From: Promethearchaeota archaeon
GTDB taxonomy: Archaea > Asgardarchaeota > Hermodarchaeia > Hermodarchaeales > Hermodarchaeaceae
Assembly: GCA_048938385.1 (NCBI GenBank)
Contig: JBHLMG010000023.1
Location: forward strand, 1-36,995
DNA: 36,995 bases
Direction: 5' to 3'
The position numbers and the translations under genes are program-made. Positions 9,974 through 24,754 of this stretch are shown piece by piece (position 1 is the first letter of the stretch; every line of letters begins with the position of its first letter). Below the pieces are notes generated by a model, which worked only from the letters and a program-made list of their open reading frames with translations, ran no database searches and had not been told where the DNA came from.

Positions 9974-10492
9974 TCACTGTTTGACAAAAAAGATCAGCTG
10001 TGAAACTGCGTTTACCATTCGACTCCACGATTCTTCGAGTTCATCCTGCGGTAAAGTAGAACCGCCAGCAGCATATCGTGTGAAGATGATTTCAGCGCTG
10101 TGATAGAGCGTATGCAAAGTGGTGTGAGCTACCACCCAACCTAGACTTGGTTTTGACTTGTTCGTAGGTGGTTGAAACACAAGGTCTTCGTCAGGACATT
10201 CTTTTAGTTCCCGAAGGATTCGTTCCTGAACATCAATCAACAAATCCTTTGCGATACCGAGAGGAACCTGTTTTGCATACACGATGACCTTACGCCCTGT
10301 AGCGGCAAGCCAATAAAGTTCCGAGTTGGCGATATGCGTCAGATAATAGACAATTGTGCGTGATTCAGGCGCAATCTCCTGAGACGCCTGTTCTGCCGTT
10401 AAATCAGTTAAAATATAGTTAAGATGATTATGGGCTGCCCGATATGCTGCTGCAAGACCGACGCGCAAGTCCTTTGGTGGGTTAACCTTCAT
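9974..10492 (-). CDS. DinB/YfiT-like four-helix-bundle protein
   Basis: HIANSELYW and HTTLHTLYH His pattern; ATG 10492. Confidence 0.75.
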   Translation of the reverse strand: MKVNPPKDLRVGLAAAYRAAHNHLNYILTDLTAEQASQEIAPESRTIVYYLTHIANSELYWLAATGRKVIVYAKQVPLGIAKDLLIDVQERILRELKECPDEDLVFQPPTNKSKPSLGWVVAHTTLHTLYHSAEIIFTRYAAGGSTLPQDELEESWSRMVNAVSQLIFFVKQ

Positions 10493-10648
10493 AAAATACA
10501 ACGGGTCTGTACCTCAACTAAAGTTTTTGCTTCTGCTAACACAATCAATGAACAGCCCTAAACCATCTTTAAGGATGCATCTTCCCAAAATTCTATAAGC
10601 GGCAGATGGGGAGGGCTTCTAGAGGTTCAAAGTTTGGTACCTGATGAG

Positions 10649-13192
10649 ATGGCTGGGAAACGCTTAGAACTTCCCTTCACAGCGATAGTTAATCATGAAG
10701 AATTAAAACTAGCCCTGCTACTCAACGCTATTAATCCCAAAATTGGTGGGCTTCTCATCACCGGGCCAAAGGGAACCGGCAAAACAACTATAGTTCGGTC
10801 TCTGGCAGCTTTACTTCCAGAAATTCCAGTGGTCAAAGCTTGCCAATTTCGCTGTGCTCCTGATGATGCTACAGGTGTTTGTGCCGCGTGCAAAGCACGA
10901 TTGAATAACAAAGAGACCCTAAAAACTGAACTCCAAAAAATGCGCGTCATCAATCTCCCACTGAGCGCGACTGAAGACCGAGTGGTTGGCAGCCTTGATG
11001 TTGAACAAGCCATTCGTGAGGGCGTCGCTGCCTTAAAACCAGGTATTTTGGCAAGTGCCAACCAAAACATCCTCTATGTTGATGAAGTGAATCTCCTTCC
11101 TGATCACATCGTGGATTCCCTCTTGGATGCTGCTGCAACCGGGGTGAATGTGATTGAACGAGAAGGAATCTCTGTTAGCCATCCAGCACGGTTCATATTT
11201 ATCGGTTCTATGAACCCTGAAGAAGGGGAACTCCGTCCTCAATTGCTTGACCGATTTCCCCTCCATGTCGCTATCCAACGGCCTTTCTCCGATGAAGAAC
11301 GAGTTGAAATTATCCGGTTAAACCTGGCTTTTGAGCGTGACCCTAAGGGGACATTATCCGAATGGGCAACGCAAGAAGACAAACTACGCCAGGACATTGA
11401 TGCCGCAAGAAAACGAATGAAGGACGTGTATATTCCCGAATCGGTCATGCAGGTTATTGCCCATTTAACTTCACGCTTACAAGTTGATGGTGCTCGACCT
11501 GACATCGTGATTGCTAAAACCGCCTTGGCCTTCGCTGCCTTTGATGGACGCACCGAAGTCACAGTTGAAGATGTCGAAGTGGTGGCTTCATTGGCTCTTA
11601 GCCATCGAACTCGCCAACGCGGGATTCTAGAACCGCCTACCAGCCAAGAGGTAAGCGATGTAATGAAAGAAGCCCGAAAAAAAGCAAAAACTCAAGATCC
11701 AAGAGGCAAGGATAGGGATCCTCATACCAAAGAAGACCACCAGAAACTGACAAGTAAATTCAAGAAATTCCACGCCCTCGATGCTAGTCAAGACGGTGAT
11801 CGCTTTTCAGGTACTCCCCCTAAGAAGAAAGTCGGTGGTCGATTGTCGTACACAGGATTTGTGTGCTTTTACATAGTAATGGCTGCGGCAATAGGCCTCC
11901 TCCTCCCAGTGGTTTTTCCCGTTAACTTCATCATAGGGGGGTTCTTCGCTGCAGGTTTGGTGTTACTCTTCGAACGCATTCTCCGCTCTCACCGTCGACC
12001 GGGAATGGTCATGCCTTCACTATCCGAAGGTGATAGTCCGCCGACTCCAAGAGGAAGGTTTCGTCGCGCAAAACATAAAGGCGAAGCTGCTGGTGCACCG
12101 GCAGCCAGTGCCACTGCTCCTAAAACTGTGAAAATCACTCGTCAAGAGGAACCCCGCTCACGCAAGCCTCTTCTTTCTCCTTCGCTAGTTCGGTTAGATC
12201 AAGGTAAACCTTTGTTTCAACTTGAGGATTTACTCCAACCCCGATACTTTGGCCGGCAGCGCGCACCTAAATGGTCGATTCGTCAGGTCGGACGGCGTGC
12301 GGGCTCAGGTCAAAGTCGCAAGGTAGATAACGGTGTCCTCCTCGGTGCTAGCCTTCCTCATGGTTCACCTCGCAACATTCACCTACCCGCAACTATCACG
12401 GCAGCAGCACTCCATAATGAAACCTCGACGCAGGTTCCCCGACTTCGTATTCAACCTTCAGATGTCTGGGAAAAACGTTTCCAGAGCTGGACTCCTCTTA
12501 CGATAATATTTGTTATAGATCTCAGTATTTCGATGGTCAAGAACTTCGACAAACTACAACTCTCTTTACTCGCATTCAAAAACTGTCTAGAAGGCACGCG
12601 TGACCGAGTTGGTCTCATAGCATTGAAAGATTGGGGCGCTGTGGAGGTACAAGCGCCCACAACGAACTGGACTCGCCTGGTCGCGAAACTCATGACGCTT
12701 CGACTTTCAGGATATACACCCCTAGCTGCGGGACTAAGACGCGCTCATGATACGATAAAGCGAGAACGCCGTCGAAATCCTGGAACGCTACCACTGATAG
12801 TGGTGTTCAGCGATTATCTTCCTAACATCCAGTTGCAGGGCTCTGAAACCCCGGATATCGGACTGCCAGAAGCAATTGCAGATGTTCTCCATCAATGCCA
12901 CCTCTTAAGAAAAGATCGCATTCCACTCGTAACTATCAACCTCCACCACGAGTTCTTTCGAATCAAAAACAAGCGTCATCATGAGGTGATATTAGATTGG
13001 GTGCGAAAGCGCTCTCATGAACTTAACATAACTAATTTCCTTGAAGTTGGAATCCGGGAGGATAAACTCATTCCTTTTCTTGCTTTCTATATGGCCTATA
13101 TCACCTCAGGGCGCACATACCTTGGTGATGAACTGTCAACACCACCAGTAATAATTAGTGAAATTCACCGAATCGCTCAAGGAAGAAACTGA
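10649..13192 (+). CDS. ChlI/ChlD-like (chelatase-type) AAA+ ATPase with internal TM hairpin and C-terminal vWA domain
   Basis: [44 protein letters not shown] and [16 protein letters not shown]; vWA MIDAS DLSIS, GYTPL, FSD. Confidence 0.9.
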
Positions 13193-13315
13193 GGACTAGC
13201 AATACTTCTTTCTTTAACGCAAAATTCTCAGTATCATTGATAAGTTTGGACGCACCTCAGAAAATTTATCACTAATAGCGCCCTTCTATGACTTAACAGT
13301 AATCGGTGGGTCAGA

Positions 13316-13987
13316 ATGGCACAACTGTATAGTCTTTATGTCGTGTACCGCGATGGTCGAACCCTGCTTCAACGAGATTTCCAGATTGAGAACATGGAAC
13401 CTGATCTAGTCACAGGGTTTCTCTCAGCAGTAAGCATGTTTCTTTCAGATCTAGTGGGACGAATATGTGATGAAGGTCAACAGATCCGATCGTTAGAGCG
13501 TGAAGATGGGCGGCTTCGAATTATTGACCGTGAAGATGTAAAGATACTGTTAGAATATGGTAAAAACATCTATGTGGCCGTCTTTTCTACCGACGATCTT
13601 AAAGCAACCCGGGAGCGAATGAGACGCCTAATTGCCATTATTGAACGAGAACACGGCGAAAAGCTGGAGGACTGGATTGGTGATCTAGCACCTTTCCGGA
13701 ACATTATCCCCATGATTGATACAATCTTTCGTCCTTTTGCAGTTACTGAACGCTATGTTCCATCACGCGTTCACACCGTTTCTGAAGAAGCCATAGCAGA
13801 AGAGTTTCATTCACTATTAGAGAAGGTTGATGGCTACAACTCCATTGAGGACCTGGCAGCTTCTCTCCAAACACCACTCCTTCAAGTAATACTCGACATA
13901 CAGAACCTGCAAGAACAGGGGGCTGTTACGCTCAAGCGTAGGGTGAGTATTGAACAACTAGTATCGTACAACCCACCAACTCGATAA
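13316..13987 (+). CDS. Longin-like domain plus NPRL2-type winged-helix protein (Asgard-type eukaryotic signature protein)
   Basis: LYVVYRDGRTLL..F...DLVTGFLSAVSMF longin-like start; C-terminal VDGYNSIEDLA...IQNLQEQGAVTL winged helix. Confidence 0.7.
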   Translation: MAQLYSLYVVYRDGRTLLQRDFQIENMEPDLVTGFLSAVSMFLSDLVGRICDEGQQIRSLEREDGRLRIIDREDVKILLEYGKNIYVAVFSTDDLKATRERMRRLIAIIEREHGEKLEDWIGDLAPFRNIIPMIDTIFRPFAVTERYVPSRVHTVSEEAIAEEFHSLLEKVDGYNSIEDLAASLQTPLLQVILDIQNLQEQGAVTLKRRVSIEQLVSYNPPTR

Positions 13988-13989
13988 AT

Positions 13990-14895
13990 TTATTCTTCTT
14001 CGCCTTGATCCTTTTCTTGTTGAATTTTGTGTATGATTTTCTCCATTTCTTTCAGGCTAGAATGAATCATTTTCTTGAGGGAGTGGAGTTCCTCTTCGAT
14101 TGCGTCTAGCTGATTACGAAGCTCCTCAATGGTTACGCTAGATGGCTCCACATCATCCCTTAATTGTGGAGTACTGAGAAGCACGATTTCTTGATCGGTA
14201 GGAATCTTAGCTAGCCATCGAAAGGTCTGGATGATGAAGGTGGAATGATCTCTAATTTCAATATAATCGTTGAAGAATGGAGTTGTACCCCCTAGCGCTA
14301 CCACTCGCCCGTTTTTTACCTCCTGAGCCACTGCAACGATAGGATTACCAGGGTAACTGGAAGCTCGTAATATCTGATGGGCCTTGTTCCCTGACATTAT
14401 GCTAGTTGCTCCCAGGAATAATACACAGCGAATTCCGGTAACGATAGGGTGCATAGCCGAAGGTATCGTAGTTATCATATCATCAGGTGATTTCTCCTCA
14501 CCATTACTTCGAGTCATTGTCGCTCTTATCGCCATGTCAGAAAATTCTAGCGCGAATGGCTTCATAACGGCGTTTAAGTTAGTATTTCGAGCTGCGTCTC
14601 CACCTTTTCCAAAAATTGTTGCGCCACTTAAAACCAGTAAACCTCCACCTGACTCTACATAAGCTGTTAATGTAGACACCTCTGGTTTTGAAAAGGTTGA
14701 ATCTAGGGGGTTCCCTAGCACAACGATTTGATATGGCGTCAAATCCTCCTTATTCAATGGTAGCGATGTCGAACTAACAACAATTCCATTGGCATCCAAT
14801 AGTAAGCGAAGCCGAGACAGCTCTGGTTCTTTTAATGTAACTTCTTCATTATGGCTAGTAATAAAAAGAACATTAACCGGTGTTGAGGGTGACAT
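13990..14895 (-). CDS. GIFT (GldG/IFT52)/DUF4350-like domain protein with C-terminal coiled coil
   Basis: IVVLGNP...FS..EV..L..YVESGGGLLVL, NLNAVM..F, HPIVTGI and GRVVALG patterns; heptad-rich tail; no signal peptide. Confidence 0.7.
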   Translation of the reverse strand: MSPSTPVNVLFITSHNEEVTLKEPELSRLRLLLDANGIVVSSTSLPLNKEDLTPYQIVVLGNPLDSTFSKPEVSTLTAYVESGGGLLVLSGATIFGKGGDAARNTNLNAVMKPFALEFSDMAIRATMTRSNGEEKSPDDMITTIPSAMHPIVTGIRCVLFLGATSIMSGNKAHQILRASSYPGNPIVAVAQEVKNGRVVALGGTTPFFNDYIEIRDHSTFIIQTFRWLAKIPTDQEIVLLSTPQLRDDVEPSSVTIEELRNQLDAIEEELHSLKKMIHSSLKEMEKIIHKIQQEKDQGEEE

Positions 14896-14993
14896 AGACT
14901 CTTGACCTCATTTCTCATTGCAGGCGCCGGAGTTAAATATACTACTCGAGTGGTCTATACTAGGTCCTCGAATAATATACGAAACCAAGGAGT

Positions 14994-17153
14994 GTGTCAA
15001 GAGTGACGGCATTATCAGTGCGAGTGATTGAAGCTAGCGCAGTAGATGTCGGGCGGTTTACTGTGCGCTTGGACCCAGAAATTCTCGATCAACTACAACT
15101 CGCGGATGGTTCTGTGGTTGAAATTCTGGGTAAAAAAAGCATCTGTGCCTTTGCCTACCGGGACGATAGTGCATCAAATCTAAAGGTCATCCGAATGGAT
15201 GGGTTAACTCGGTTAAACGCCGGCGTCAAAATTGGCGATATCGTAACTTTGCACAAAGCTGAAGTCACGCCAGCACGAACTGTTGTATTGACTCCACTCA
15301 AAGGCGAAGAAACTAGTTATCGGGAAGAATTTGCAGTATCCCTTCTGAAAACCAACCTGCTAGAAAAACCGATCAAAAAAGACATCGTGATTGCTGTAGG
15401 TCGCGCAGCGTTTGCTCTTGGCGAAGCAAAATTCTATGTTGCCAAAACTATTCCCTCTGGCAATGTGATGATCAATACTAATACTGAACTTCAACTTCTA
15501 AAAGAAGCACCGGAGGATATCCCGACCGTAACAACGGCAACTTACGATGATGTGGGCGGCTTAGACGAGGCTATTCGGCGTATTCGCGAAATTATCGAAC
15601 TACCTATTCGACACCCCGAACTCTTCGCTCGATTGAAAATCGAACCACCGCACGGCCTCCTCCTCCATGGTCCCCCAGGATGCGGTAAAACTCTATTAGC
15701 TCGCACAGTTGCCACAGAAAGCGAAGCGTATTTTCGAGCAATTAACGGTCCTGAGATAGTCAGTCAGTACTATGGGGAATCAGAAAGATTTCTGCGCGAT
15801 GCGTTCAAAGAAGCCGAAGATCACAAACCCGCTATCGTCTTCATAGATGAAATAGATGCTATCGCTTCTCGACGAGAAACGGGTGGAATGGAGAGCCGTA
15901 TAGTCGCTCAACTCTTGACCTTGATGGATGGTTTACAAGATCGCGATCAAGTCTATGTCCTGGCTGCCACTAACCGGTTAGAAGCACTTGATCCTGCACT
16001 GCGGCGTCCAGGACGGTTTGATCGAGAAATCCATATTCCCGTTCCGGATACGCGTGGACGGTATGAAATATTACGAGTGCATACACGGGGAGTACCCCTT
16101 GATTCTTCAGTTGATTTGGAACATATAGCACAGGCTAGCCACGGCTTTGTAGGTTCTGATCTCGCATTTTTAGTCAAAGAGGCCGCTCTAAGCGCTTTAC
16201 GCCGTGCGCTACCACAGATCGAAGAACGACAAATGCAAGTTCCTCCAGAAGTGATCAACCAAATTACGGTAACAGCGGATGACTTTCGATTAGCCCGACA
16301 AGTAGTTGAACCTTCTGCACTCCGAGAAATCGCTATCGAAATCCCCCAAATCCATTGGAACGATGTCGGTGGAATGGAAGCAGCAAAACAAGCACTCCGA
16401 GAAGCTGTAGAACTGCCCATCAGTCGTCCTGATATCTTTGCTCGCTTCAATATCGATCCTCCTAAGGGAGTACTCCTATTTGGACCACCAGGAACAGGTA
16501 AAACCCTCTTGGCCAAAGCTGTTGCAACAGAGAGCCAAGCAAATTTCATATCAGTGCGTGGCGCAGAGGTAATGAGCAAATGGGTTGGTGAATCAGAGAA
16601 AATCATAGCAGAACTGTTTCGTCGAGCGCGCCAAGCAGCACCTGCAGTACTCTTTATTGATGAACTGGATAATCTAGCTCCAAGACGGGGTTCAGGATTT
16701 GACAGTAGAGTAAGTGAACGGGTTGTGAATCAGTTGCTTGTCGAAATGGATGGGATTGAAGAACTGCAAGGAGTAGTTATACTTGCTGCAACTAACCGCC
16801 CTGACATCATCGATCCCGCACTGCTTCGCCCTGGTCGGTTTGATATTTTCATTTACACACCTGCTCCTGATGCTAAAGCTCGACGCGCTATCTTTGCGGT
16901 CCATACACATGGAATGCCCCTAGCCAATGATGTCGATCTAGAACGCCTTGCAGCCACTACAGAAGGTTTTACGGGTGCTGACATCGTTAATGTGTGTCGT
17001 AAAGCAGTCTTAGCTACTGTTCGGACTAACCTTGAAGCACAGAAAGTAAGTTTAGCACACTTTCATGAGGCTATTTCCTCAACCCCTCCCAGTATCACTT
17101 CTGAGGTAGAGCAGCAATTCAGTAAAATAGCTGCCCGTCTATTAAGGAAATAA
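14994..17153 (+). CDS. cdc48: CDC48/p97/VAT family double-ring AAA+ ATPase
   Basis: N-domain IRMDG.TR.NAGV; D1 GPPGCGKT, FIDEID, YYGE, RRPGRFD; D2 GPPGTGKT, FIDELD, WVGE, LRPGRFD. Confidence 0.96.
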   Translation: MSRVTALSVRVIEASAVDVGRFTVRLDPEILDQLQLADGSVVEILGKKSICAFAYRDDSASNLKVIRMDGLTRLNAGVKIGDIVTLHKAEVTPARTVVLTPLKGEETSYREEFAVSLLKTNLLEKPIKKDIVIAVGRAAFALGEAKFYVAKTIPSGNVMINTNTELQLLKEAPEDIPTVTTATYDDVGGLDEAIRRIREIIELPIRHPELFARLKIEPPHGLLLHGPPGCGKTLLARTVATESEAYFRAINGPEIVSQYYGESERFLRDAFKEAEDHKPAIVFIDEIDAIASRRETGGMESRIVAQLLTLMDGLQDRDQVYVLAATNRLEALDPALRRPGRFDREIHIPVPDTRGRYEILRVHTRGVPLDSSVDLEHIAQASHGFVGSDLAFLVKEAALSALRRALPQIEERQMQVPPEVINQITVTADDFRLARQVVEPSALREIAIEIPQIHWNDVGGMEAAKQALREAVELPISRPDIFARFNIDPPKGVLLFGPPGTGKTLLAKAVATESQANFISVRGAEVMSKWVGESEKIIAELFRRARQAAPAVLFIDELDNLAPRRGSGFDSRVSERVVNQLLVEMDGIEELQGVVILAATNRPDIIDPALLRPGRFDIFIYTPAPDAKARRAIFAVHTHGMPLANDVDLERLAATTEGFTGADIVNVCRKAVLATVRTNLEAQKVSLAHFHEAISSTPPSITSEVEQQFSKIAARLLRK

Positions 17154-17197
17154 TCTAACAAAGCCAATGTGTAAAACTCGAAGGATGGGATATCTCA

Positions 17198-18046
17198 TTG
17201 ACCTGGGAATTAGAACCAACTGCAAAACTTAAACTCGTTAAAAGTATATTACCAAAAGAAAATGAAACCCTACTCCTCGTCGCTAGATCAAAAGCTGTTA
17301 CTGGAGTCCGAGCTGGCTCAGAACCCATCACTGTTCGAGGACAGGATGGTTACTTCATCCTTACCAGCTATCGTGTAACCTATCTTGCGGAGATTGAAGG
17401 TCTTCCACCTGAAGAACAACCAGCGGGTCAACTCATTAAAGGAAAAACCTTGGTCCGTGTTTTTATGAATCTTCCATTAGTCTTTCTTCCACAACTCCGA
17501 GAACGACCCGACAGTTACACTCAATGGAAAAAACACATGAACCTGGTCATCGAAAAGCCTGATGGCGTCCAAGAAATTGTCTACATTAAAGCAACTGGTG
17601 ACCTACTTGATTTCCAACGGACAAGTCATGATTTTTTCAAACAGTGCTTTACTGGCCCCATAAACTTTGAAGCGCTCAAAGAAACGGGCGTTAAACACAC
17701 CGAAACAACCGAATCCTACATCTATGACCTAATAGGAAAACGAATTAGCCAACAGATGATGGCAGTTCCAGAGAGTTTACTCGACAGTTATCGGAAAAAA
17801 GCCCGAACTACCTTCAACGCCTTCATCAGATTCCTCGGTAAAAAGGGGCAAGGTGGCTTTTATGACCCTGTTGCCCGAACCTTAGTAATTCGGGGTACTC
17901 ATGTACACATTACATTGGATTGGATCGCAACATCCAACAACCCCTCACTGACGCGCACAATTCAACAATACATTGAAGAGTGGAGGTCTGAAGTAGAAGT
18001 CAAGAGTGAAAAACTAGGAGACCGTTATGAGATAACGGGATTCTAA
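17198..18046 (+). CDS. Hypothetical protein with N-terminal PH-fold (GRAM/GLUE/bacterial PH-like) domain
   Basis: NETLLLVAR...GYFILTSYRVTYL matches the G-x-phi-phi-LT-x-x-R-phi pattern of PH-like folds. Gene is clear, fold is inferred. Confidence 0.55.
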   Translation: MTWELEPTAKLKLVKSILPKENETLLLVARSKAVTGVRAGSEPITVRGQDGYFILTSYRVTYLAEIEGLPPEEQPAGQLIKGKTLVRVFMNLPLVFLPQLRERPDSYTQWKKHMNLVIEKPDGVQEIVYIKATGDLLDFQRTSHDFFKQCFTGPINFEALKETGVKHTETTESYIYDLIGKRISQQMMAVPESLLDSYRKKARTTFNAFIRFLGKKGQGGFYDPVARTLVIRGTHVHITLDWIATSNNPSLTRTIQQYIEEWRSEVEVKSEKLGDRYEITGF

Positions 18047-18108
18047 ACTTTTCACCAGAAGCTATTTGAGGTAAGACGCATTCGCGGATATGCAAAGGAG
18101 GTATTAGC

Positions 18109-19359
18109 GTGGCAAAAACAATCTGCCTTTTGGCCCCAGATCCTTATCTTGGTTCTCAGCCCAGTATCCCTATTGGTGATGTAGGGGGACAAACCTATTG
18201 GACGCAAATGATTCAGGCTCCACACAAAGACAAAGGAGCTCAGGCTATTCGGGCATTTCGTCGTCTAACACGACTCGCAGCTTTTGGAGGCTTTTCAACA
18301 GGAAAGACCCTGAAACGAAAACTACCTTCCGGAACCGAAGTTACTGAATCCGATGCCCGTCTCCCGCAGTTTATCTACCATCCTCCTGATATGGAACGCG
18401 ACATGGAGCAGATCGAAATCATTGAAAAAGACGCCAAAATTTATGTTCCGCCAGACTGGATTTGCTGTGCGTATGGTGAAGAATTCAACGATGGTGATCG
18501 AGAATTCAAAGTATACGAAATCTGGGAACCTGGCGAAACCCCCTATACAATCGAAACTATGTCCTCTCCACTCATCAAGACTGGTTGGCGCGGACAGGGT
18601 TTCAAAGCTAATGTCGTATTCATCTATACTGGGCGAGTTCATGTTTATGCAAACACAGGTGTCACCCAAACCGCGGATCTAGCGAGACTAACCTGGACTG
18701 GCAAATCCTGGCGCCGTGAAGAATATGATATTCCTGTTTCAAATGCAGAAGGAAAAACGAGTTATAAACGATCAGTTCGACTACAAGAACCCTATGGGCT
18801 CTTGTTTGCCTTCGTCGTAGATGATCCTCGCAAACTCTTAATCACTCTTCAAGACCAACGCATCCCCATGAACTCTCAAGAGCTAATTGAATACTTGAAA
18901 ACTCTAATTGATAATGTCATGCGGGATCAATTTTCCAATCACGATTTTATGAGTGCCCTACGAGACGAAGCTAATATCCGCGATGAAGTTCGCCAAGTAG
19001 TAGCTAAAGCATTTAACCGACTTGGCTTAAACTTGGTCTCGCTTTCGGCTGGTGTCTTATCCATAGAAGAAAAACTTTGGGACCGATTCTTCTATTGGCG
19101 CGTCGCAGGAGTTCATCCTGCTCAAGTGCTTTGGGCTGAAAAATCCGTTGAAATTGCGGAAAAAACTGGACAAGCTCCCACTCTTCCCGCTACAATTCCT
19201 ACGGGTCCACTTGCGGAAGCTGAACAAGCACTACGTGAGCGAGCAACAACTAAAACATCCCGTTCTGAACGCGTCAAGACTGCTGTGAAAGAAAAGGCTA
19301 AAGGCGGATTAGAAAAAAAGTCTGCTGAACCCTCATCAAAGGATATAGATGAGGATTAA
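18109..19359 (+). CDS. SPFH/Band-7 domain protein of the soluble YdjI (Band_7_1) type
   Basis: FIY..P, WEPG..YTIET..P, FKANVVFI, F.VDDPRKLL, L..LI...MRD.F and F..LGLNLVSL patterns; GGAGGT SD. Confidence 0.7.
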   Translation: MAKTICLLAPDPYLGSQPSIPIGDVGGQTYWTQMIQAPHKDKGAQAIRAFRRLTRLAAFGGFSTGKTLKRKLPSGTEVTESDARLPQFIYHPPDMERDMEQIEIIEKDAKIYVPPDWICCAYGEEFNDGDREFKVYEIWEPGETPYTIETMSSPLIKTGWRGQGFKANVVFIYTGRVHVYANTGVTQTADLARLTWTGKSWRREEYDIPVSNAEGKTSYKRSVRLQEPYGLLFAFVVDDPRKLLITLQDQRIPMNSQELIEYLKTLIDNVMRDQFSNHDFMSALRDEANIRDEVRQVVAKAFNRLGLNLVSLSAGVLSIEEKLWDRFFYWRVAGVHPAQVLWAEKSVEIAEKTGQAPTLPATIPTGPLAEAEQALRERATTKTSRSERVKTAVKEKAKGGLEKKSAEPSSKDIDED

Positions 19360-19407
19360 TTCCCCTGGTCATTCCTAACGAAGAGAAAAGGTGAGGCGTA
19401 AAAGGAA

Positions 19408-19965
19408 ATGAATCCTAAAGATGACCTTCCACAAGGAAAAGAAAATCTATTCTCAGGGCCACTTCTACCTGTGCTGTTTCTCCGACTCGTTGAAGCCTTA
19501 TCTTTTGAACACCAGGGACATCCAGCAGCTATTGAACAAGCACTACACGATTTAGGTAAAACGATGACCACCCCCCTTCTTGTAGAACTTGTTCGTCGAT
19601 ATGCAAAGCCTCATGAGGCCTTTATTCCTTCAAAACCGGAACTGTTTCTCAATCGAGTTGACGAATACCTTACCAAGAATTGGGAACTCGCCACAGGTTC
19701 ACCTCCTCAAGACTTGGAATTTACAGATGATCATACTCTGATTTTACGCACTTCGTCCTGCCCTATCTGTTCGTACGATGTTTTTGATGCTCACTTGAAT
19801 CTCCGCTATTGTGAACTTGTTTCCGGCATGCTAGAAGGGTTGTTACAGACTTGGATTGATAATCTTCAACTTCCGTACACCGCCCGAGTAACACAAACAG
19901 CTGGGCGTCTACAGGGTGATCCCTCGTGCGAGTTTAAGTTGCACTTTTCTGATGCAAACCCTTAA
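19408..19965 (+). CDS. V4R (HNOX/V4R/Bet3 superfamily) domain protein
   Basis: CPIC, YCELVSGMLEGLL and GDPSCEFKL motifs. Confidence 0.8.
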   Translation: MNPKDDLPQGKENLFSGPLLPVLFLRLVEALSFEHQGHPAAIEQALHDLGKTMTTPLLVELVRRYAKPHEAFIPSKPELFLNRVDEYLTKNWELATGSPPQDLEFTDDHTLILRTSSCPICSYDVFDAHLNLRYCELVSGMLEGLLQTWIDNLQLPYTARVTQTAGRLQGDPSCEFKLHFSDANP

Positions 19966-19979
19966 TCGCTTCAGAGCGA

Positions 19980-21812
19980 TTACTGAAGCCTGGTAGTTTT
20001 TTCAAGTGCGGGAATAACCCAATCCAACCCTTGCTCCTTTAGGCATCCCTTTGTTGGAATTCCCCGCTCATCCCACCCGCGTTTTGCATAATACCAAGAG
20101 AGGAGTTGGTCATATCCTTCTTTATCCAGTTTAGATCCTGCCAGAGGCCCCACAGTTAAGGGTTCTGTAAACCATCGTGCAGGAGGGTAGTCTAGAGAAC
20201 GGTCCCATTCACCATTATATTCACGCACCCAATAGGATCGTACCAAGGAATAGACCATATCTGCATGGGTCCAGAAATCATCGAGGGTCCATTTCAAACC
20301 AGTGGCTGCCGCGAAGTACTTGGGGTACCATTCTAAATTAAAACCTATTTCGATCCATGGAAATCGACACCCCACTAGTTGCTCAAATAAACCTCCTCGG
20401 ATGCGTTGTAATTCGATGATTTTGTCCACTTTACTCTCTTCGTAGGTTTCACGCCCTACATCTACCTCGTGGGTGATGACCCAGCTTTCCTTATGGTGGG
20501 CACCAATAGAGCATACACCAAAGGCAAGAGCCATTCCGGGTGCAGCATGGCAATCATAACCTGAGATTTCTAAACCTTTGATTTGCATAGCAAAATCTAA
20601 CGATCCTTTTCCGAGTTTAGCTGCAGCACTTTGTGTGCCATCTGCCAACATTGAGCCCAGACTCCCTTTTCGGAAGGCTATATCTGTAACGAGTTGGTGG
20701 GTAGCGGAAAAATCACCCCAATCGAGTTTTTCTCCAAGAATTCCTTTTTCCGATGCTTCCATGGCAAACGCAATAACCCCACCAAGCGAGATCGTATCGA
20801 GTCCATATTCGTCAGCTAGACGGTTTAAGGTAGCGACCTCACGAAGGTCGCGCATACCAATGTTTGATCCTAACAAAGCGATATTTTCATAGTCTAGCTC
20901 TGCTGATTTTCCTTCAGAGTCTTGAATACAATGTCCACATTGCATTGTACAAGAAGGACAACCACGGGTTTTGATTTTCATTTTTTCCATGGTGTCTCCG
21001 CTTAGAGCTTCAGCATGTTCGAATTGTCCTTCACGGAAGTTGTAACTGGGAAGCACACTGTACTCTTGACACCAAGAGTGAATCAACATCGTACCTTGCG
21101 TCATCCAATTGTCATAACCCGGCTTCTCTCTAATATCCTTGAAACCATCGCGCCCTAATTGGCGGAACGCTTCCGAATCAGCAAGTAGGGGAGTCGTTGA
21201 GCCTTTCGCGACTAAGGCTTTCACATTCTTTGAACCCAATACCGTTCCCATACCAGGACGGCCCCCTGATCTACCCATCATGGATCGCACGGTGGCGAAT
21301 TTTACTAGGTTCTCTCCACCCTGACCGATCATCAGAGTACCAATGTTCTTTCCATGTTCATCTTCTAGCTTCTGTTCTGCTTCGAATGCCCCTTTCCCCC
21401 AAAGTGAATCCGCATCTAGAATATTTACATCTGAATTTTCGATTAAAATATATGAGGGCGCTTTGGCTTTCCCTTCAATTACGACGAGATCATAACCTGA
21501 TCGGCGTAATTGGATTCCAAAATGAGTCCCAAGATTCCCATCACCGTAGCCACCAGTTAATGGGCTTTTTGCCGCGACAACTGTTTTACCAACATTAGGC
21601 ATAGATAAACCGGAAAGAGGTCCTGCCGCAGCAATGAATTTATTACCAGGTGATAAGGGATCTGTACCCTTTGGCACTTCATCCCAGAGAATCTTTACGG
21701 CCATACCACGACCGCCTATAAATTGGAGCGCAAAATCTTTCGAGTATTTCTCGACTCGAATCTCTTTCGTTGTTAAGTTCACGCGTAAAAACTGTCCAGT
21801 CCAACCTTTCAT
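19980..21812 (-). CDS. for: Tungsten-dependent aldehyde:ferredoxin oxidoreductase, FOR-like clade
   Basis: IGGRG, KSPLTGGYGDGNLGT, GRPGMG, CPSCTMQC, DEYGLDTIS, IGAHHKESW and LQRIRGGLFE, closely resembling Pyrococcus FOR as recalled. Confidence 0.92.
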   Translation of the reverse strand: MKGWTGQFLRVNLTTKEIRVEKYSKDFALQFIGGRGMAVKILWDEVPKGTDPLSPGNKFIAAAGPLSGLSMPNVGKTVVAAKSPLTGGYGDGNLGTHFGIQLRRSGYDLVVIEGKAKAPSYILIENSDVNILDADSLWGKGAFEAEQKLEDEHGKNIGTLMIGQGGENLVKFATVRSMMGRSGGRPGMGTVLGSKNVKALVAKGSTTPLLADSEAFRQLGRDGFKDIREKPGYDNWMTQGTMLIHSWCQEYSVLPSYNFREGQFEHAEALSGDTMEKMKIKTRGCPSCTMQCGHCIQDSEGKSAELDYENIALLGSNIGMRDLREVATLNRLADEYGLDTISLGGVIAFAMEASEKGILGEKLDWGDFSATHQLVTDIAFRKGSLGSMLADGTQSAAAKLGKGSLDFAMQIKGLEISGYDCHAAPGMALAFGVCSIGAHHKESWVITHEVDVGRETYEESKVDKIIELQRIRGGLFEQLVGCRFPWIEIGFNLEWYPKYFAAATGLKWTLDDFWTHADMVYSLVRSYWVREYNGEWDRSLDYPPARWFTEPLTVGPLAGSKLDKEGYDQLLSWYYAKRGWDERGIPTKGCLKEQGLDWVIPALEKTTRLQ

Positions 21813-21971
21813 CCATGACTCACCAAGTAGTGTATTCTATGTTGTTCCGTTGGTTCAACACAAATAACTTTCGCAGGTATACAGCTCTACTCAATAAGAG
21901 GATACTATTACCCAACGCCTCATTTTCATTCACGGTAAGCATTTATGAGACTGAACGACTAAGCTAACTCC

Positions 21972-22415
21972 ATGAGCTTAATCTCAACAGCCTGTGTCTT
22001 TTGTAAAATCGTGAACCAACAAATACCTGCGCATATTGTCTTTGAAAACCATGAAATTCTCTCATTTCTTGACATTCATCCAATCAACCCAGGTCACACA
22101 CTCATCATTCCAAAAGACCATGTGCCAAGCCTTGATAACCTCGATCCTAAACTAGCTGGACGAATGTTTCAAGTCGCTGGACGAATTGCTGCAGCCTTGC
22201 GTAAATCTAAGATACGATGTGAAGGTATTAATGTCTGGCTTGCTGATGGTAAGGCTGCATTCCAAGAGATACCCCATATCCACATTCATGTTATTCCTCG
22301 ATATGCTGGAGATGGACTCCGAATCCAAGCTGGCAAGGATTATGGAAAAACACCACCCCCTGATAAGCTAGAAAAACAAGCGCAGCAAATCCGTAATGCA
22401 CTAGATGCTCTTTAA
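21972..22415 (+). CDS. HIT family nucleotide hydrolase
   Basis: CVFCKIV, FLDIHP..PGHTLIIPK and HIHIHVIPR motifs. Confidence 0.95.
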   Translation: MSLISTACVFCKIVNQQIPAHIVFENHEILSFLDIHPINPGHTLIIPKDHVPSLDNLDPKLAGRMFQVAGRIAAALRKSKIRCEGINVWLADGKAAFQEIPHIHIHVIPRYAGDGLRIQAGKDYGKTPPPDKLEKQAQQIRNALDAL

Positions 22416-22498
22416 ATCAGGGTTCCTGCCCTGAAAAGAAGTCTCAAATAGTTGAAGTACACGATATTGAGAATACTTGACTGGATGTTTTGATTGTA

Positions 22499-24100
22499 AT
22501 GAAACTCCGAAGATTGGGTGGCTTTGTGCTTTCGTTTCTCATCATTGGGCTAGCAACACCGCTTTTTTATGAAGCACCTCACCCAATGCTATCAGTGGTT
22601 TCGCCTACTGCTTTAGGCGATCCTTGGAATACTCTATGGATGCGCTCCTCTAATGATTCTTACTCAGCTGTAACAACAAGCGTTGGTGCCGTCTTTGTAG
22701 CAGGTACTACATCTTCTTCTCTTGAAGTACATCCTCCAATTAACGATATTTTGCTTGTGAAATATGATCCAGAAGGAGAACCACAATGGAACCGAACATG
22801 GCAAACATCCTATGATAAAACCGTCAACGATCTTCTCGCTTCTGTAAATTCCTTGTATATAGCTGGGCAAACAGAAACTGAAGTTAATGGAACCAATGGT
22901 CTTCTGATTAAGCTTGATTTTGATGGAGGTGAACTCTGGAATGTATCATTTGGAGGGTCTCTTAACGAGGGTTTTACTTGCCTTGCTTTAGGAGCTGACG
23001 GAATCTATGTGGGGGGCTACTCTACAAATACTAGTAGTGGACAGACATCCGCGCTCGTCGTGAAGTTTAATTTTAATGGTTTTGTAGTATGGAACGAAAC
23101 TTGGTGCTTCCTTGATCCCATTACTCGCGCAACAGATATCGCCCTAGGATCTGATGGAGGTTATCTCGTCGGTGCGCTTGAACAAGTATGGGGTGTTATT
23201 CATGATCCATTTCTTCTCAAATTCTCTTTCACTGGGATAGAAATGTGGAATCTCACTAGCCTGTATGTTTCAAGCCAACGGTACTCAGGAATTACTGTAT
23301 TCAATGATACCGTTTATGTAACTGGCACTAGCTTTAGTTCTCTTGAGGATTCACCTGTACTCCTTCTGGAATTGTTTAATAGCTCTGGTGGGTCACTCTG
23401 GACCCAAGAGGATGAAATGGGACTTAATCACGAAGGATTTGGTCTTCATGTTTTAGAAGATGATGTGTTTGTGGGTGGAGTCTTTGAAGATCCTTCCGCT
23501 GGCTATCGGGTTAGTCTACTCCATTTCAATCAGACCGGTGAATTAAATTGGAAACGAATCTGGGGCGGTGCTGGAAATTGTCAGCCCTTTGCGTTCTCCT
23601 CGGCGGTTGATAGCTTATATTTCGCTGGAGCTACTAGTGGCTGGCTGACTCCCTCAACGAATGGATTCCTTGTAAAATTCAGCTTAGATGGAGCATCAGC
23701 TCCTGGACCCGTTGAACTCACCAAGATAACTCTCCTTAATCCTTACGGGTCTTTCATTGTACCTTGGACTCCCGCCTTCGATCCTGATGGTGTCATTGAG
23801 GATTATGAACTCCAAATGGATACAACTCCCCTCTTTGATCGACCTGACATTACTTGGATAATTAATGCAACAAGTCACATAATATACAACCGACCTATCG
23901 GAACTTACTATTTCCGAGTTCGGGCTCGCGACAACCAGGATCTATATGGTCCTTGGAGTAATGTCGCTATGGTAATAATTGAACTCGTTCCCCCAGTTTT
24001 GTTCAATCCATGGCTAGCCCCTGCTGTTCTTGCTTTAGGAATCTTAATTATTCTGGCTGGATTCCTGTTCACCATTATCCGTAGGGGTCGACTAGAATAA
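22499..24100 (+). CDS. Secreted, C-terminally anchored beta-propeller (SBBP-like) plus fibronectin type III surface protein
   Basis: Signal peptide; repeated Y/F-V-x-G...L-x-K-F/Y-x-x-x-G-x-x-x-W blades; YELQ..YYFRVRA..GPWS FnIII; C-terminal TM plus RRGR. Confidence 0.8.
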   Translation: MKLRRLGGFVLSFLIIGLATPLFYEAPHPMLSVVSPTALGDPWNTLWMRSSNDSYSAVTTSVGAVFVAGTTSSSLEVHPPINDILLVKYDPEGEPQWNRTWQTSYDKTVNDLLASVNSLYIAGQTETEVNGTNGLLIKLDFDGGELWNVSFGGSLNEGFTCLALGADGIYVGGYSTNTSSGQTSALVVKFNFNGFVVWNETWCFLDPITRATDIALGSDGGYLVGALEQVWGVIHDPFLLKFSFTGIEMWNLTSLYVSSQRYSGITVFNDTVYVTGTSFSSLEDSPVLLLELFNSSGGSLWTQEDEMGLNHEGFGLHVLEDDVFVGGVFEDPSAGYRVSLLHFNQTGELNWKRIWGGAGNCQPFAFSSAVDSLYFAGATSGWLTPSTNGFLVKFSLDGASAPGPVELTKITLLNPYGSFIVPWTPAFDPDGVIEDYELQMDTTPLFDRPDITWIINATSHIIYNRPIGTYYFRVRARDNQDLYGPWSNVAMVIIELVPPVLFNPWLAPAVLALGILIILAGFLFTIIRRGRLE

Positions 24101-24187
24101 TCAGATGTCGGGGAATGAGTGATACATTAAGAGACTTGTGGAAAAAAATTGTGTGCTACTACAGGTTCAAACCAAATTCTTGTGTTG

Positions 24188-24754
24188 TCATTCCCTTGAG
24201 GCTAGTCTTTTCTTTCGCCAAGGAATGATGAAAGGCACACTTTCACGATATTCATCATAGTTGTTTCCAAACCGTCGTAATAGTTCAATTTCTTCATACC
24301 CTAGCAAAGCGAGCTGAAGCGGTGTATAAATCAGTGCGACAATCAATAAGGGTACGAAATCAAATGTTAACGCGAAGGCGGGGGTTGCGAAGATAAAACC
24401 AAGCGTTTGAGGGTGACGACAAAAAGCGTAAGCCCCACTGGTAACGAGAATCGCTGTTCGCTTCGAATCACCAATCTCGCTCCCTTGTGCGCGGGAAAGA
24501 CCAAGTGAGGTTACCCCCCAGGTGATGAACATCACAGCTAAAATTAGCAGTACTTGTCCAATGATCAGTTGAACTAACCGCCATGGGAATAGAAGGCTCA
24601 TTCCTGGAAGGAACTGCCAAGGAATTTGAATTGAATACCAAGTTAAAACCAAGACGATAGCTAGGATTACGAAGTAGAGTATGTTGGGAAGAATCACGAT
24701 AATCAATCGTGATCCTAATCCTACGCGTGATGATTTTGCCAATTTAAACACCAA
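24188..24754 (-). CDS. Isoprenylcysteine carboxyl methyltransferase / PEMT family membrane protein
   Basis: LVTSGAYAFCRHPQ and EE..L..RFG..Y.EY...VP motifs. Confidence 0.88.
   Translation of the reverse strand: MVFKLAKSSRVGLGSRLIIVILPNILYFVILAIVLVLTWYSIQIPWQFLPGMSLLFPWRLVQLIIGQVLLILAVMFITWGVTSLGLSRAQGSEIGDSKRTAILVTSGAYAFCRHPQTLGFIFATPAFALTFDFVPLLIVALIYTPLQLALLGYEEIELLRRFGNNYDEYRESVPFIIPWRKKRLASRE

Follow-up and report, generated by a model that had tools for sequence, protein, structure and literature searches.

A lineage-specific Asgard gene cluster of a third Cdc48 paralogue, an orphan, an SPFH and a TRAPPC3/V4R-type protein

Results

A conserved run of four genes

Positions 14,994 to 19,965 of contig JBHLMG010000023.1 (assembly GCA_048938385.1, Promethearchaeota archaeon; contig C27 in our labelling) hold four consecutive genes, here called genes 1 to 4, which encode a paralogue of the AAA+ unfoldase Cdc48, an orphan protein, an SPFH protein and a TRAPPC3/V4R-type protein. 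The window is the whole stretch of DNA analysed, 36,995 nt, and belongs to a 2.48-Mb, 90%-complete Asgard metagenome-assembled genome whose homologues carry the source labels Promethearchaeota, Hermodarchaeota and Thorarchaeota. As the original prediction from the DNA letters had stated, the four open reading frames lie on the same strand and are separated by gaps of 44, 62 and 48 nt (Table 1). A Shine-Dalgarno (SD)-like site stands ahead of every gene, in order AAGGAG, GAAGGATGGG, AAGGAGGT and GGTGAGG. Since every one of the 14 genomes of the genus keeps all four genes free of stops, they are real genes and their arrangement is not due to chance. Identity between orthologues within the genus is 78-81% for CDC48, 63-68% for gene 2, 82-87% for gene 3 and 65-70% for gene 4, with one exception in genome G007 (56%, over a longer match). 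The arrangement is lineage-specific and confined to this one Asgard genus.

Table 1. Genes and putative signals of the cluster, with coordinates in the window
Feature	Coordinates	Strand	Description
CDC48 paralogue (gene 1)	14994..17153	+	719 aa from GTG 14994; N-domain, D1 and D2 AAA rings; C-terminus LLRK
Orphan soluble basic protein (gene 2)	17198..18046	+	282 aa; isoelectric point 8.9; genus-level family
Anchor-less SPFH protein (gene 3)	18109..19359	+	416 aa; N-extension aa 1-~105/130; SPFH1+2 core aa ~106-321; helical region; K/E-rich tail
TRAPPC3/V4R-type protein (gene 4)	19408..19965	+	185 aa; invariant cysteines C118, C121, C135, C174
B recognition element (BRE)/TATA-like motif	14922..14940	+	ggcgccggag TTAAATAT, also given as ggcgccggagTTAAATAT; 54-72 nt upstream of the CDC48 start, within the 98 nt that separate CDC48 from the divergent GIFT gene
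62-nt spacer before the SPFH gene	18047..18108	+	conserved ACCAnnAGtTATtTGAaG and AAGGAGG
Inverted repeat GCTTCAG/CTGAAGC followed by T6	19968..20002	+	directly past gene 4, overlapping the 3' end of the convergent aldehyde:ferredoxin oxidoreductase (AOR) gene
Two further genes of the indel block	13316..14895		223-aa protein (+) and 301-aa GIFT/DUF4350 protein (-), the latter divergent from CDC48

Gene 1 is an additional, divergent Cdc48

The leading gene had been called an intact CDC48, and the profile searches agree. The CDC48/VAT family model TIGR01243 matched aa 8-714 with 909.7 bits against a cut-off of 802.65, and Pfam returned CDC48_N at 71 bits (cut-off 35.1), AAA at 302.8 bits in two stretches and AAA_lid_3 in two stretches, which together make up an N-domain, two AAA modules and two lids; CDC48_2 was not among the Pfam matches listed for gene 1, and is weak in the Guaymas orthologue. 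The true start is probably GTG 15003, giving 716 aa, which lies 10 nt past AAGGAG and matches database record P0057. In the translation the Walker A and B motifs read GPPGCGKT and FIDEID in D1 and GPPGTGKT and FIDELD in D2, with aromatic pore loops SQYYGESE (YYG) in D1 and SKWVGESE (KWVG) in D2, and all of these positions are invariant in the alignment of the clade (A3). Since the ATPase sites and the aromatic pore loops are intact, the protein should be able to thread and unfold substrates.

A search of 5.8 billion proteins with the cluster CDC48 returned about 30 clusters at 75-100% identity, all from this lineage, the next matches being at most 56% identical. Each of two searched genomes of the genus carries three CDC48 genes, whereas the sister genus has two, as do two genomes from another Asgard family; the window's own genome has the cluster CDC48 together with two fragmented paralogues. 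In a quick maximum-likelihood tree, drawn with midpoint rooting, the cluster clade stands outside both resident paralogue clades on a stem of 0.86 substitutions per site. As judged from its sequence, the cluster CDC48 is therefore a third paralogue on a long branch, restricted to this genus, which supports the earlier suggestion of a dedicated paralogue in the form of an extra copy with a long stem branch. The two resident paralogues of the window's genome (C45:20105-21469, C46:20053-21402, C24:125514-126395 and C35:3-815) are cut at contig ends, probably by assembly breaks within paralogous sequence. Separately, a frame change near aa 162-166 interrupts the orthologue in G007:C66 (locus L021), either through an error of sequencing or assembly or because the copy is broken in that genome.

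The C-termini of the cluster clade end in LLRK, FLGQ or similar residues, and the penultimate residue is neither F nor Y in any of the 30 clade members read, whereas the resident paralogues of the same genome end in PFA and PYA and fit the HbYX pattern used here, [LVIMGAPFYW][FY]x (PMC3493965). By this pattern, the cluster CDC48 lacks the HbYX proteasome-docking motif and both resident copies carry it. Forouzan et al. found that archaeal CDC48s without HbYX failed to activate the 20S proteasome (PMC3493965). It is therefore probable that the cluster CDC48 does not feed the 20S proteasome directly.

Gene 2 and its predicted contact with the Cdc48 N-domain

Gene 2 had no NCBIfam match and no Pfam match at E values up to 1. 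Its 33 homologues are all at least 56% identical, its profile recovered only its own cluster from 1.84 billion representatives, and no match was found among PDB sequences. The AlphaFold2 model has a mean predicted local distance difference test (pLDDT) score of 46.7, with values below 50 over aa 1-180 and confidence only at aa 200-275, such that a C-terminal alpha-beta4-alpha domain (aa ~191-270) is all that is modelled with confidence. The N-terminal half is beta-rich and we suspect that it is PH-like. This suspicion is in line with the Atlas language-model scores, which at 0.85-0.91 for the whole protein and for aa 1-135 all pointed to PH-like families (bPH_3, GRAM, bPH_1, Vps36 GLUE and BBS5), scores that the tool, with its line at 0.9, rates as leads. 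Shape searches with Foldseek against the PDB, VIA-wide and in the Atlas gave no PH match, the model being too poor for this to count against the fold. With hhalign, aa 1-135 compared with Asgard bPH_3 domains at a probability of 0.9%, equal to the control, and the gene 2 family with 12 Asgard EAP30 (Vps22/36) proteins at 0.9-1.3%, within the control range. The PH/GLUE domain claimed by the original prediction was thus not verified by Pfam, fold or profile comparison, and the label is neither confirmed nor excluded. Proteins of ~511-517 aa with bona fide bPH_3 domains do occur in the same genus (G005:C361, G006:C19 and G008:C6; loci L086, L089 and L087) and are unrelated to gene 2 by profile comparison.

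The proposal that the Cdc48 N-domain might bind a product of the cluster was followed up for gene 2 by complex prediction, with alignments of 45 rows for Cdc48-N (aa 1-185) and 32 rows for gene 2. The pair scored 0.55 against 0.05 for the best control, at least 44% of contacts agreed between runs, and the partner pLDDT was at least 64. Among solved complexes, 58 of 80 reached the pass mark of this procedure, as did 2 of 110 mismatched pairs; passing scores of 0.60 or less were seen for only 7 of the 80 solved complexes, yet for both of the mismatches that passed. The outcome is weak in-silico support, and we take the predicted contact as a reason to test binding and not as evidence for binding.

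Gene 3 is an SPFH protein without a membrane anchor

The assignment of gene 3 to the SPFH superfamily was borne out. Band_7 (PF01145) matched at 27.4 bits against a gathering cut-off of 23.6, over aa 233-313 only, and the model contains the SPFH1+SPFH2 alpha/beta fold, with cage-forming SPFH proteins, including the HflK/C-FtsH complex, as best structural matches. Band_7_1 (PF13421) reached 14.4 bits, below its cut-off of 24, and the profile found nothing useful among PDB sequences. Helices are placed at aa 337-398 in a low-confidence part of the model. No hydrophobic segment was found in any of the four proteins (the gene 3 maximum being KD19 1.24), so the protein appears soluble, as had been claimed.

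Full-length relatives of gene 3 occur in this genus only. In another Asgard family, 63 of 76 genomes encode ~300-aa proteins with Band_7_1 and a zinc ribbon that align to aa 131-357 of gene 3 with 23-27% identity; the nearest of these relatives match Band_7_1 at 81.7 and 84.8 bits, and they adjoin genes for a metallo-beta-lactamase and an Ig-domain protein. Since the nearest relatives are Band_7_1 and zinc-ribbon proteins, gene 3 descends from the YdjI-type lineage and has gained a conserved N-extension of ~130 aa, with a K/E-rich tail where the relatives have the zinc ribbon.

Gene 4 is a TRAPPC3/V4R-type protein

For gene 4 the Pfam scores fell below the thresholds (TRAPP 17.4 bits versus 27, V4R 13.6 versus 31), and V4R, in 11 of 11 orthologues, and TRAPP, in 10 of 11, both sub-threshold, were the only recurrent families. 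The Atlas leads were V4R, DUF5943 and TRAPP. The family profile matched Thorarchaeota TRAPPC3 (7yh3) with an E value of 1.5e-5, aa 17-178 aligning to 8-156 of 159 residues, and matched eukaryotic Bet3 weakly. The four invariant cysteines align with four cysteines of 7yh3. Thor-TRAPPC3 forms a homodimer, carries a Cys4 zinc site and encloses a cavity that is proposed to hold a hydrophobic ligand (PMC10933270). The full-length match and the aligned Cys4 uphold the V4R label of the original prediction, and we classify gene 4 as a TRAPPC3/V4R-type protein with a predicted zinc site.

Gene 4 resembles Thorarchaeota TRAPPC3 (PDB 7yh2/7yh3) and the bacterial V4R domains of PoxR/MopR in its full-length profile match, Cys4 alignment and similar size, but it is only ~22-24% identical to the Thorarchaeota protein and below the Pfam TRAPP/V4R cut-offs. 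In the Thor-like family, the canonical TRAPPC3 copies form same-strand pairs 2.4-2.9 kb apart and are not near CDC48 or SPFH genes. Unlike these canonical pairs, which lie beside a winged-helix protein, gene 4 is a genus-specific paralogue in a Cdc48 context. The canonical pairs form a recurrent small neighbourhood, at locus L106 (G154:C7:12648-16094) and in ~17 other genomes of family f6, where the TRAPPC3-like genes (Pfam TRAPP 36.7 bits) are preceded by one for a 310-aa protein with a DUF742-like winged helix.

Signals and layout of the putative operon

The BRE/TATA-like motif upstream of CDC48 is near-invariant in 11 genomes of the genus, and the most divergent lineage carries gtaggcggagTTTTATAT at the same place. 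Going by the archaeal BRE/TATA consensus, this motif is a putative promoter. The gaps after CDC48 and after the SPFH gene vary in length (44-60 and 38-48 nt) as well as in sequence. The spacer before the SPFH gene, conserved in sequence, is 62 nt in 10 of the 11 genomes and 63 nt in the other; RNAalifold found no conserved RNA structure in it, and it possibly combines an internal promoter with a strong ribosome-binding site for the SPFH gene. At the far end, the T6 past gene 4 is the only run of five or more T in the non-coding DNA of 14896-20100, the three internal gaps being without any, and together with the inverted repeat it possibly marks the transcript end. A bacterial promoter and terminator scan was uninformative for this archaeal DNA. 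The layout and the conserved upstream motif fit an operon, and the four genes may be co-transcribed. The operon of the original prediction is therefore retained as an operon-like layout with one conserved promoter-like motif, qualified by the 62-nt spacer, which may be a second promoter.

One indel block in one genus

In the sister genus, where the flanks are collinear, the genes for an AAA-vWA protein and for AOR are direct convergent neighbours, ~70 nt apart. This means that positions 13316-19965 form one indel block of six genes, comprising the cluster and the two further genes listed in Table 1. A search of four sister-genus genomes, 80-83% complete, found no orthologue of any of the six. 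Within the genus the whole stretch of ~14 kb, from the AAA-vWA gene to the PEMT gene, is collinear. In the most divergent lineage (contigs from hydrothermal sediment, with 75% identity for CDC48 and 59% for gene 2) an ABC transporter is inserted exactly past gene 4 and the four genes are still adjacent. Outside the genus, at 15 loci of SPFH relatives and 15 of TRAPPC3 relatives, no CDC48, SPFH, V4R or gene 2 homologue was found within 1.5 kb. The conservation of synteny across Asgard genomes that had been suggested as a check was thus seen inside one genus only; outside it, the relatives of genes 3 and 4 have unrelated neighbours.

Discussion

We propose that the cluster is a lineage-specific transcription unit of four genes, in which a third, fast-evolved Cdc48 and three soluble accessory proteins probably act together. 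This is our best explanation, and we hold it with slightly less than even confidence. Of the original prediction, what was seen in the DNA holds, and its functional interpretation is borne out in part. The identities of the genes, the status of the CDC48 as a paralogue, its missing HbYX motif, the inheritance of the genes as one block and the operon-like anatomy were observed directly. Eukaryotic Cdc48/p97 is directed by exchangeable cofactors that bind its N-domain, and to our knowledge almost no Cdc48 cofactors have been described in archaea. SPFH proteins work with AAA+ machines in the HflK/C-FtsH, prohibitin-mAAA and erlin-p97 pairs, and in eukaryotes both the SPFH and the TRAPPC3/V4R family have links to membrane organisation and trafficking.

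If the four proteins do act together, the Cdc48 without HbYX would serve as a stand-alone unfoldase or segregase and not as a direct feeder of the 20S proteasome, and gene 2, encoded beside the motor, would be the prime candidate for the role of N-domain adaptor. Like other members of its family, the anchor-less SPFH protein would assemble into an oligomeric scaffold and would be brought to a surface or membrane by a partner, as YdjI/SamI is, while the TRAPPC3/V4R-type Cys4 protein would add a dimeric subunit that binds a small ligand, for sensing or tethering. Co-transcription, physical association between the proteins, any role at a membrane, the substrates and the mode of assembly are what we infer. 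In its most specific form the proposal would describe a private, proteasome-independent Cdc48 machine with a PH-like or KA1-like N-domain adaptor, an SPFH scaffold and a TRAPPC3-type ligand-binding dimer, all of them folds with which eukaryotes work at membranes. Such a machine would be a prokaryotic counterpart of the p97-cofactor systems by which proteins are extracted from membranes or complexes. We regard this complete version as unlikely.

Several observations weigh against joint function. Since the whole ~14 kb is collinear within the genus, plain synteny is uninformative except at the block boundaries, and since no relative of genes 3 or 4 was found near a CDC48 outside the genus, where gene 2 has no relatives, there is no independent evolutionary replication. 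An internal promoter in the 62-nt spacer could give genes 3 and 4 separate transcription. Membrane segments and verified lipid-binding domains are absent from all four proteins, which leaves the membrane association of the original prediction unsupported. A missing HbYX is common, a penultimate F or Y being present in only 35 of 85 other archaeal CDC48 homologues, and is by itself no mark of special function. The score of the predicted Cdc48-N/gene 2 contact sits in a band that the tool calls more often wrong than right. The collinearity, the lack of linkage in other lineages and the possible internal promoter equally favour the view that the genes are neighbours without a joint function, forming an island of fast-evolving, co-located genes in which Cdc48 is a general unfoldase and the others have unrelated jobs. 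It is also in keeping with this view that the genes for TRAPPC3, longins and GTPases generally lie outside operons in Asgard archaea (PMC10933270). Against mere co-location stand the tight gaps on a shared strand, the SD sites and the single conserved promoter-like motif, the shared phyletic pattern with gain or loss as one block, and the Cdc48-N/gene 2 contact, with its weak in-silico support and clean controls; we consider co-location somewhat unlikely, though it is the alternative to be taken most seriously. A more structured alternative is that gene 3 assembles into an SPFH ring or dome which surrounds or gates the hexamer of Cdc48 and restricts its access to substrates, following the logic of HflK/C-FtsH or prohibitin-mAAA, with genes 2 and 4 as assembly or anchoring factors. 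The best structural matches of gene 3 are indeed cage-forming, HflK/C with FtsH among them, it surpasses the other accessory genes in conservation and in the strength of its SD site, as expected for a structural subunit in multiple copies, and SPFH baskets have been observed by cryo-electron tomography in an Asgard archaeon (bioRxiv 10.1101/2025.11.06.686947). However, gene 3 has no membrane anchor, and its SPFH core is followed by a short, poorly modelled helical region in which a cage-forming CC1/CC2 is not established. Such a cage is in our estimate distinctly unlikely.

Two further explanations would place the cluster in quite different processes. It could be a module for ESCRT-like or PspA-like membrane remodelling, derived from the kind of archaeal neighbourhood that holds Vps4, ESCRT-III, winged-helix and SPFH genes, with a two-ring Cdc48 replacing Vps4 and gene 2 as a Vps36-like protein (GLUE and winged helix). 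SPFH genes occur in archaeal Vps4 neighbourhoods, and in methanogens SPFH proteins with a coiled coil and zinc ribbon are contextually linked to Vps4-like ATPases, some of which have a VAT-type N-domain (PMC10936438); the lead from gene 2 aa 1-135 to Vps36 GLUE reached 0.89, which is under the tool's line of 0.9. But no ESCRT-III or PspA family match was found among the genes scanned (9974-24754), gene 2 compared with Asgard EAP30 at ~1% as the controls did, and the canonical EAP30 gene lies together with a Vps4-sized AAA gene on another contig, all of which makes this explanation improbable. More improbable still is a role in anti-virus defence, with the cluster as a variable, lineage-specific island that carries AAA+ ATPases: the block is lineage-restricted and behaves as an indel, and CDC48 gives matches to the IetA and TRIP13 models, but these are only generic AAA similarity, none of the accessory proteins is matched by a PADLOC model, and the block is fixed at one site in all 14 species of the genus, with no integrase and no composition shift.

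The reading of a four-gene unit around Cdc48 can be set beside several known systems. Archaeal CDC48/VAT proteins without HbYX, such as CDC48-C of M. mazei (PMC3493965), share the two-ring AAA+ architecture, the double-psi-barrel N-domain, the aromatic pore loops and the expectation of no 20S activation. The cluster CDC48 differs in forming a separate long-branch clade in one Asgard genus with three small genes alongside, and no such partners have been described for the methanogen paralogue. The archaeal Vps4-SPFH neighbourhoods of the 'Meth_adaptin' type (PMC10936438) are similar in that an SPFH gene is linked to an AAA+ protein of the Cdc48/Vps4 lineage and to eukaryote-like trafficking folds; here, by contrast, the ATPase is a full two-ring Cdc48 and not Vps4, there are no ESCRT-III, adaptin-appendage or GOLD genes, and the lineage is different.

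For gene 3 the closest parallel is YdjI/SamI of Bacillus subtilis, a Band_7_1 SPFH protein of the pspA-ydjGHI operon, which is cytosolic and recruited by membrane partners (PMC8581546, PMC13713150). Both lack an anchor of their own, and the closest kin of gene 3 in Asgard archaea likewise belong to Band_7_1. At our locus, however, Cdc48 is encoded nearby instead of PspA or membrane partners of the YdjG/H type, and no PspA-type match was found among the neighbouring genes scanned. Gene 3 also differs from YdjI/SamI by its extra N-extension of ~130 aa and a score below the Band_7_1 cut-off, and from its own Asgard relatives by having no zinc ribbon. In HflK/C-FtsH, prohibitin-mAAA and erlin-p97 an SPFH protein is likewise coupled to an AAA+ unfoldase, but there the SPFH protein is membrane-anchored and the pairing is biochemically or structurally shown, whereas here there is neither an anchor nor a protease domain and the putative coupling is one of gene order.

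No description of a Cdc48-SPFH-V4R cluster was found in the literature searched. The components belong to known families, and the pairing of SPFH proteins with AAA+ machines is a known theme; what is new is that here a full Cdc48 paralogue and a TRAPPC3-type protein come into the pairing, and that the second gene is an orphan. The cluster offers a small, testable candidate set consisting of a divergent, HbYX-less Cdc48 and three co-inherited proteins. If these proteins assemble, they would provide a tractable archaeal Cdc48-adaptor system and a further SPFH/AAA+ pairing. Since the cluster is restricted to one genus, it says little about the ancestor of eukaryotes.

Neighbouring genes

The block is flanked by a gene for an 852-aa MoxR/chelatase-type AAA-vWA fusion (10634-13192) and by the AOR gene (19980-21812). 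In the one sister-genus locus that extends over the syntenic place (G017), the DinB gene (9974-10501) was not found there. The EAP30 (Vps22/36-like) gene and the gene for a Vps4-sized (387-aa) single-AAA protein adjoin on contig C30 (16-690 and 1655-2347), and this pair is an ordinary ESCRT locus, separate from the Cdc48 cluster. Of the two further genes of the block, the 223-aa protein has a weak DUF742-like winged helix at aa 156-210 (E 0.04), and the 301-aa GIFT/DUF4350 protein is cytosolic and matches IFT52_GIFT at 42 bits, the 98-nt spacer between its gene and CDC48 being conserved.

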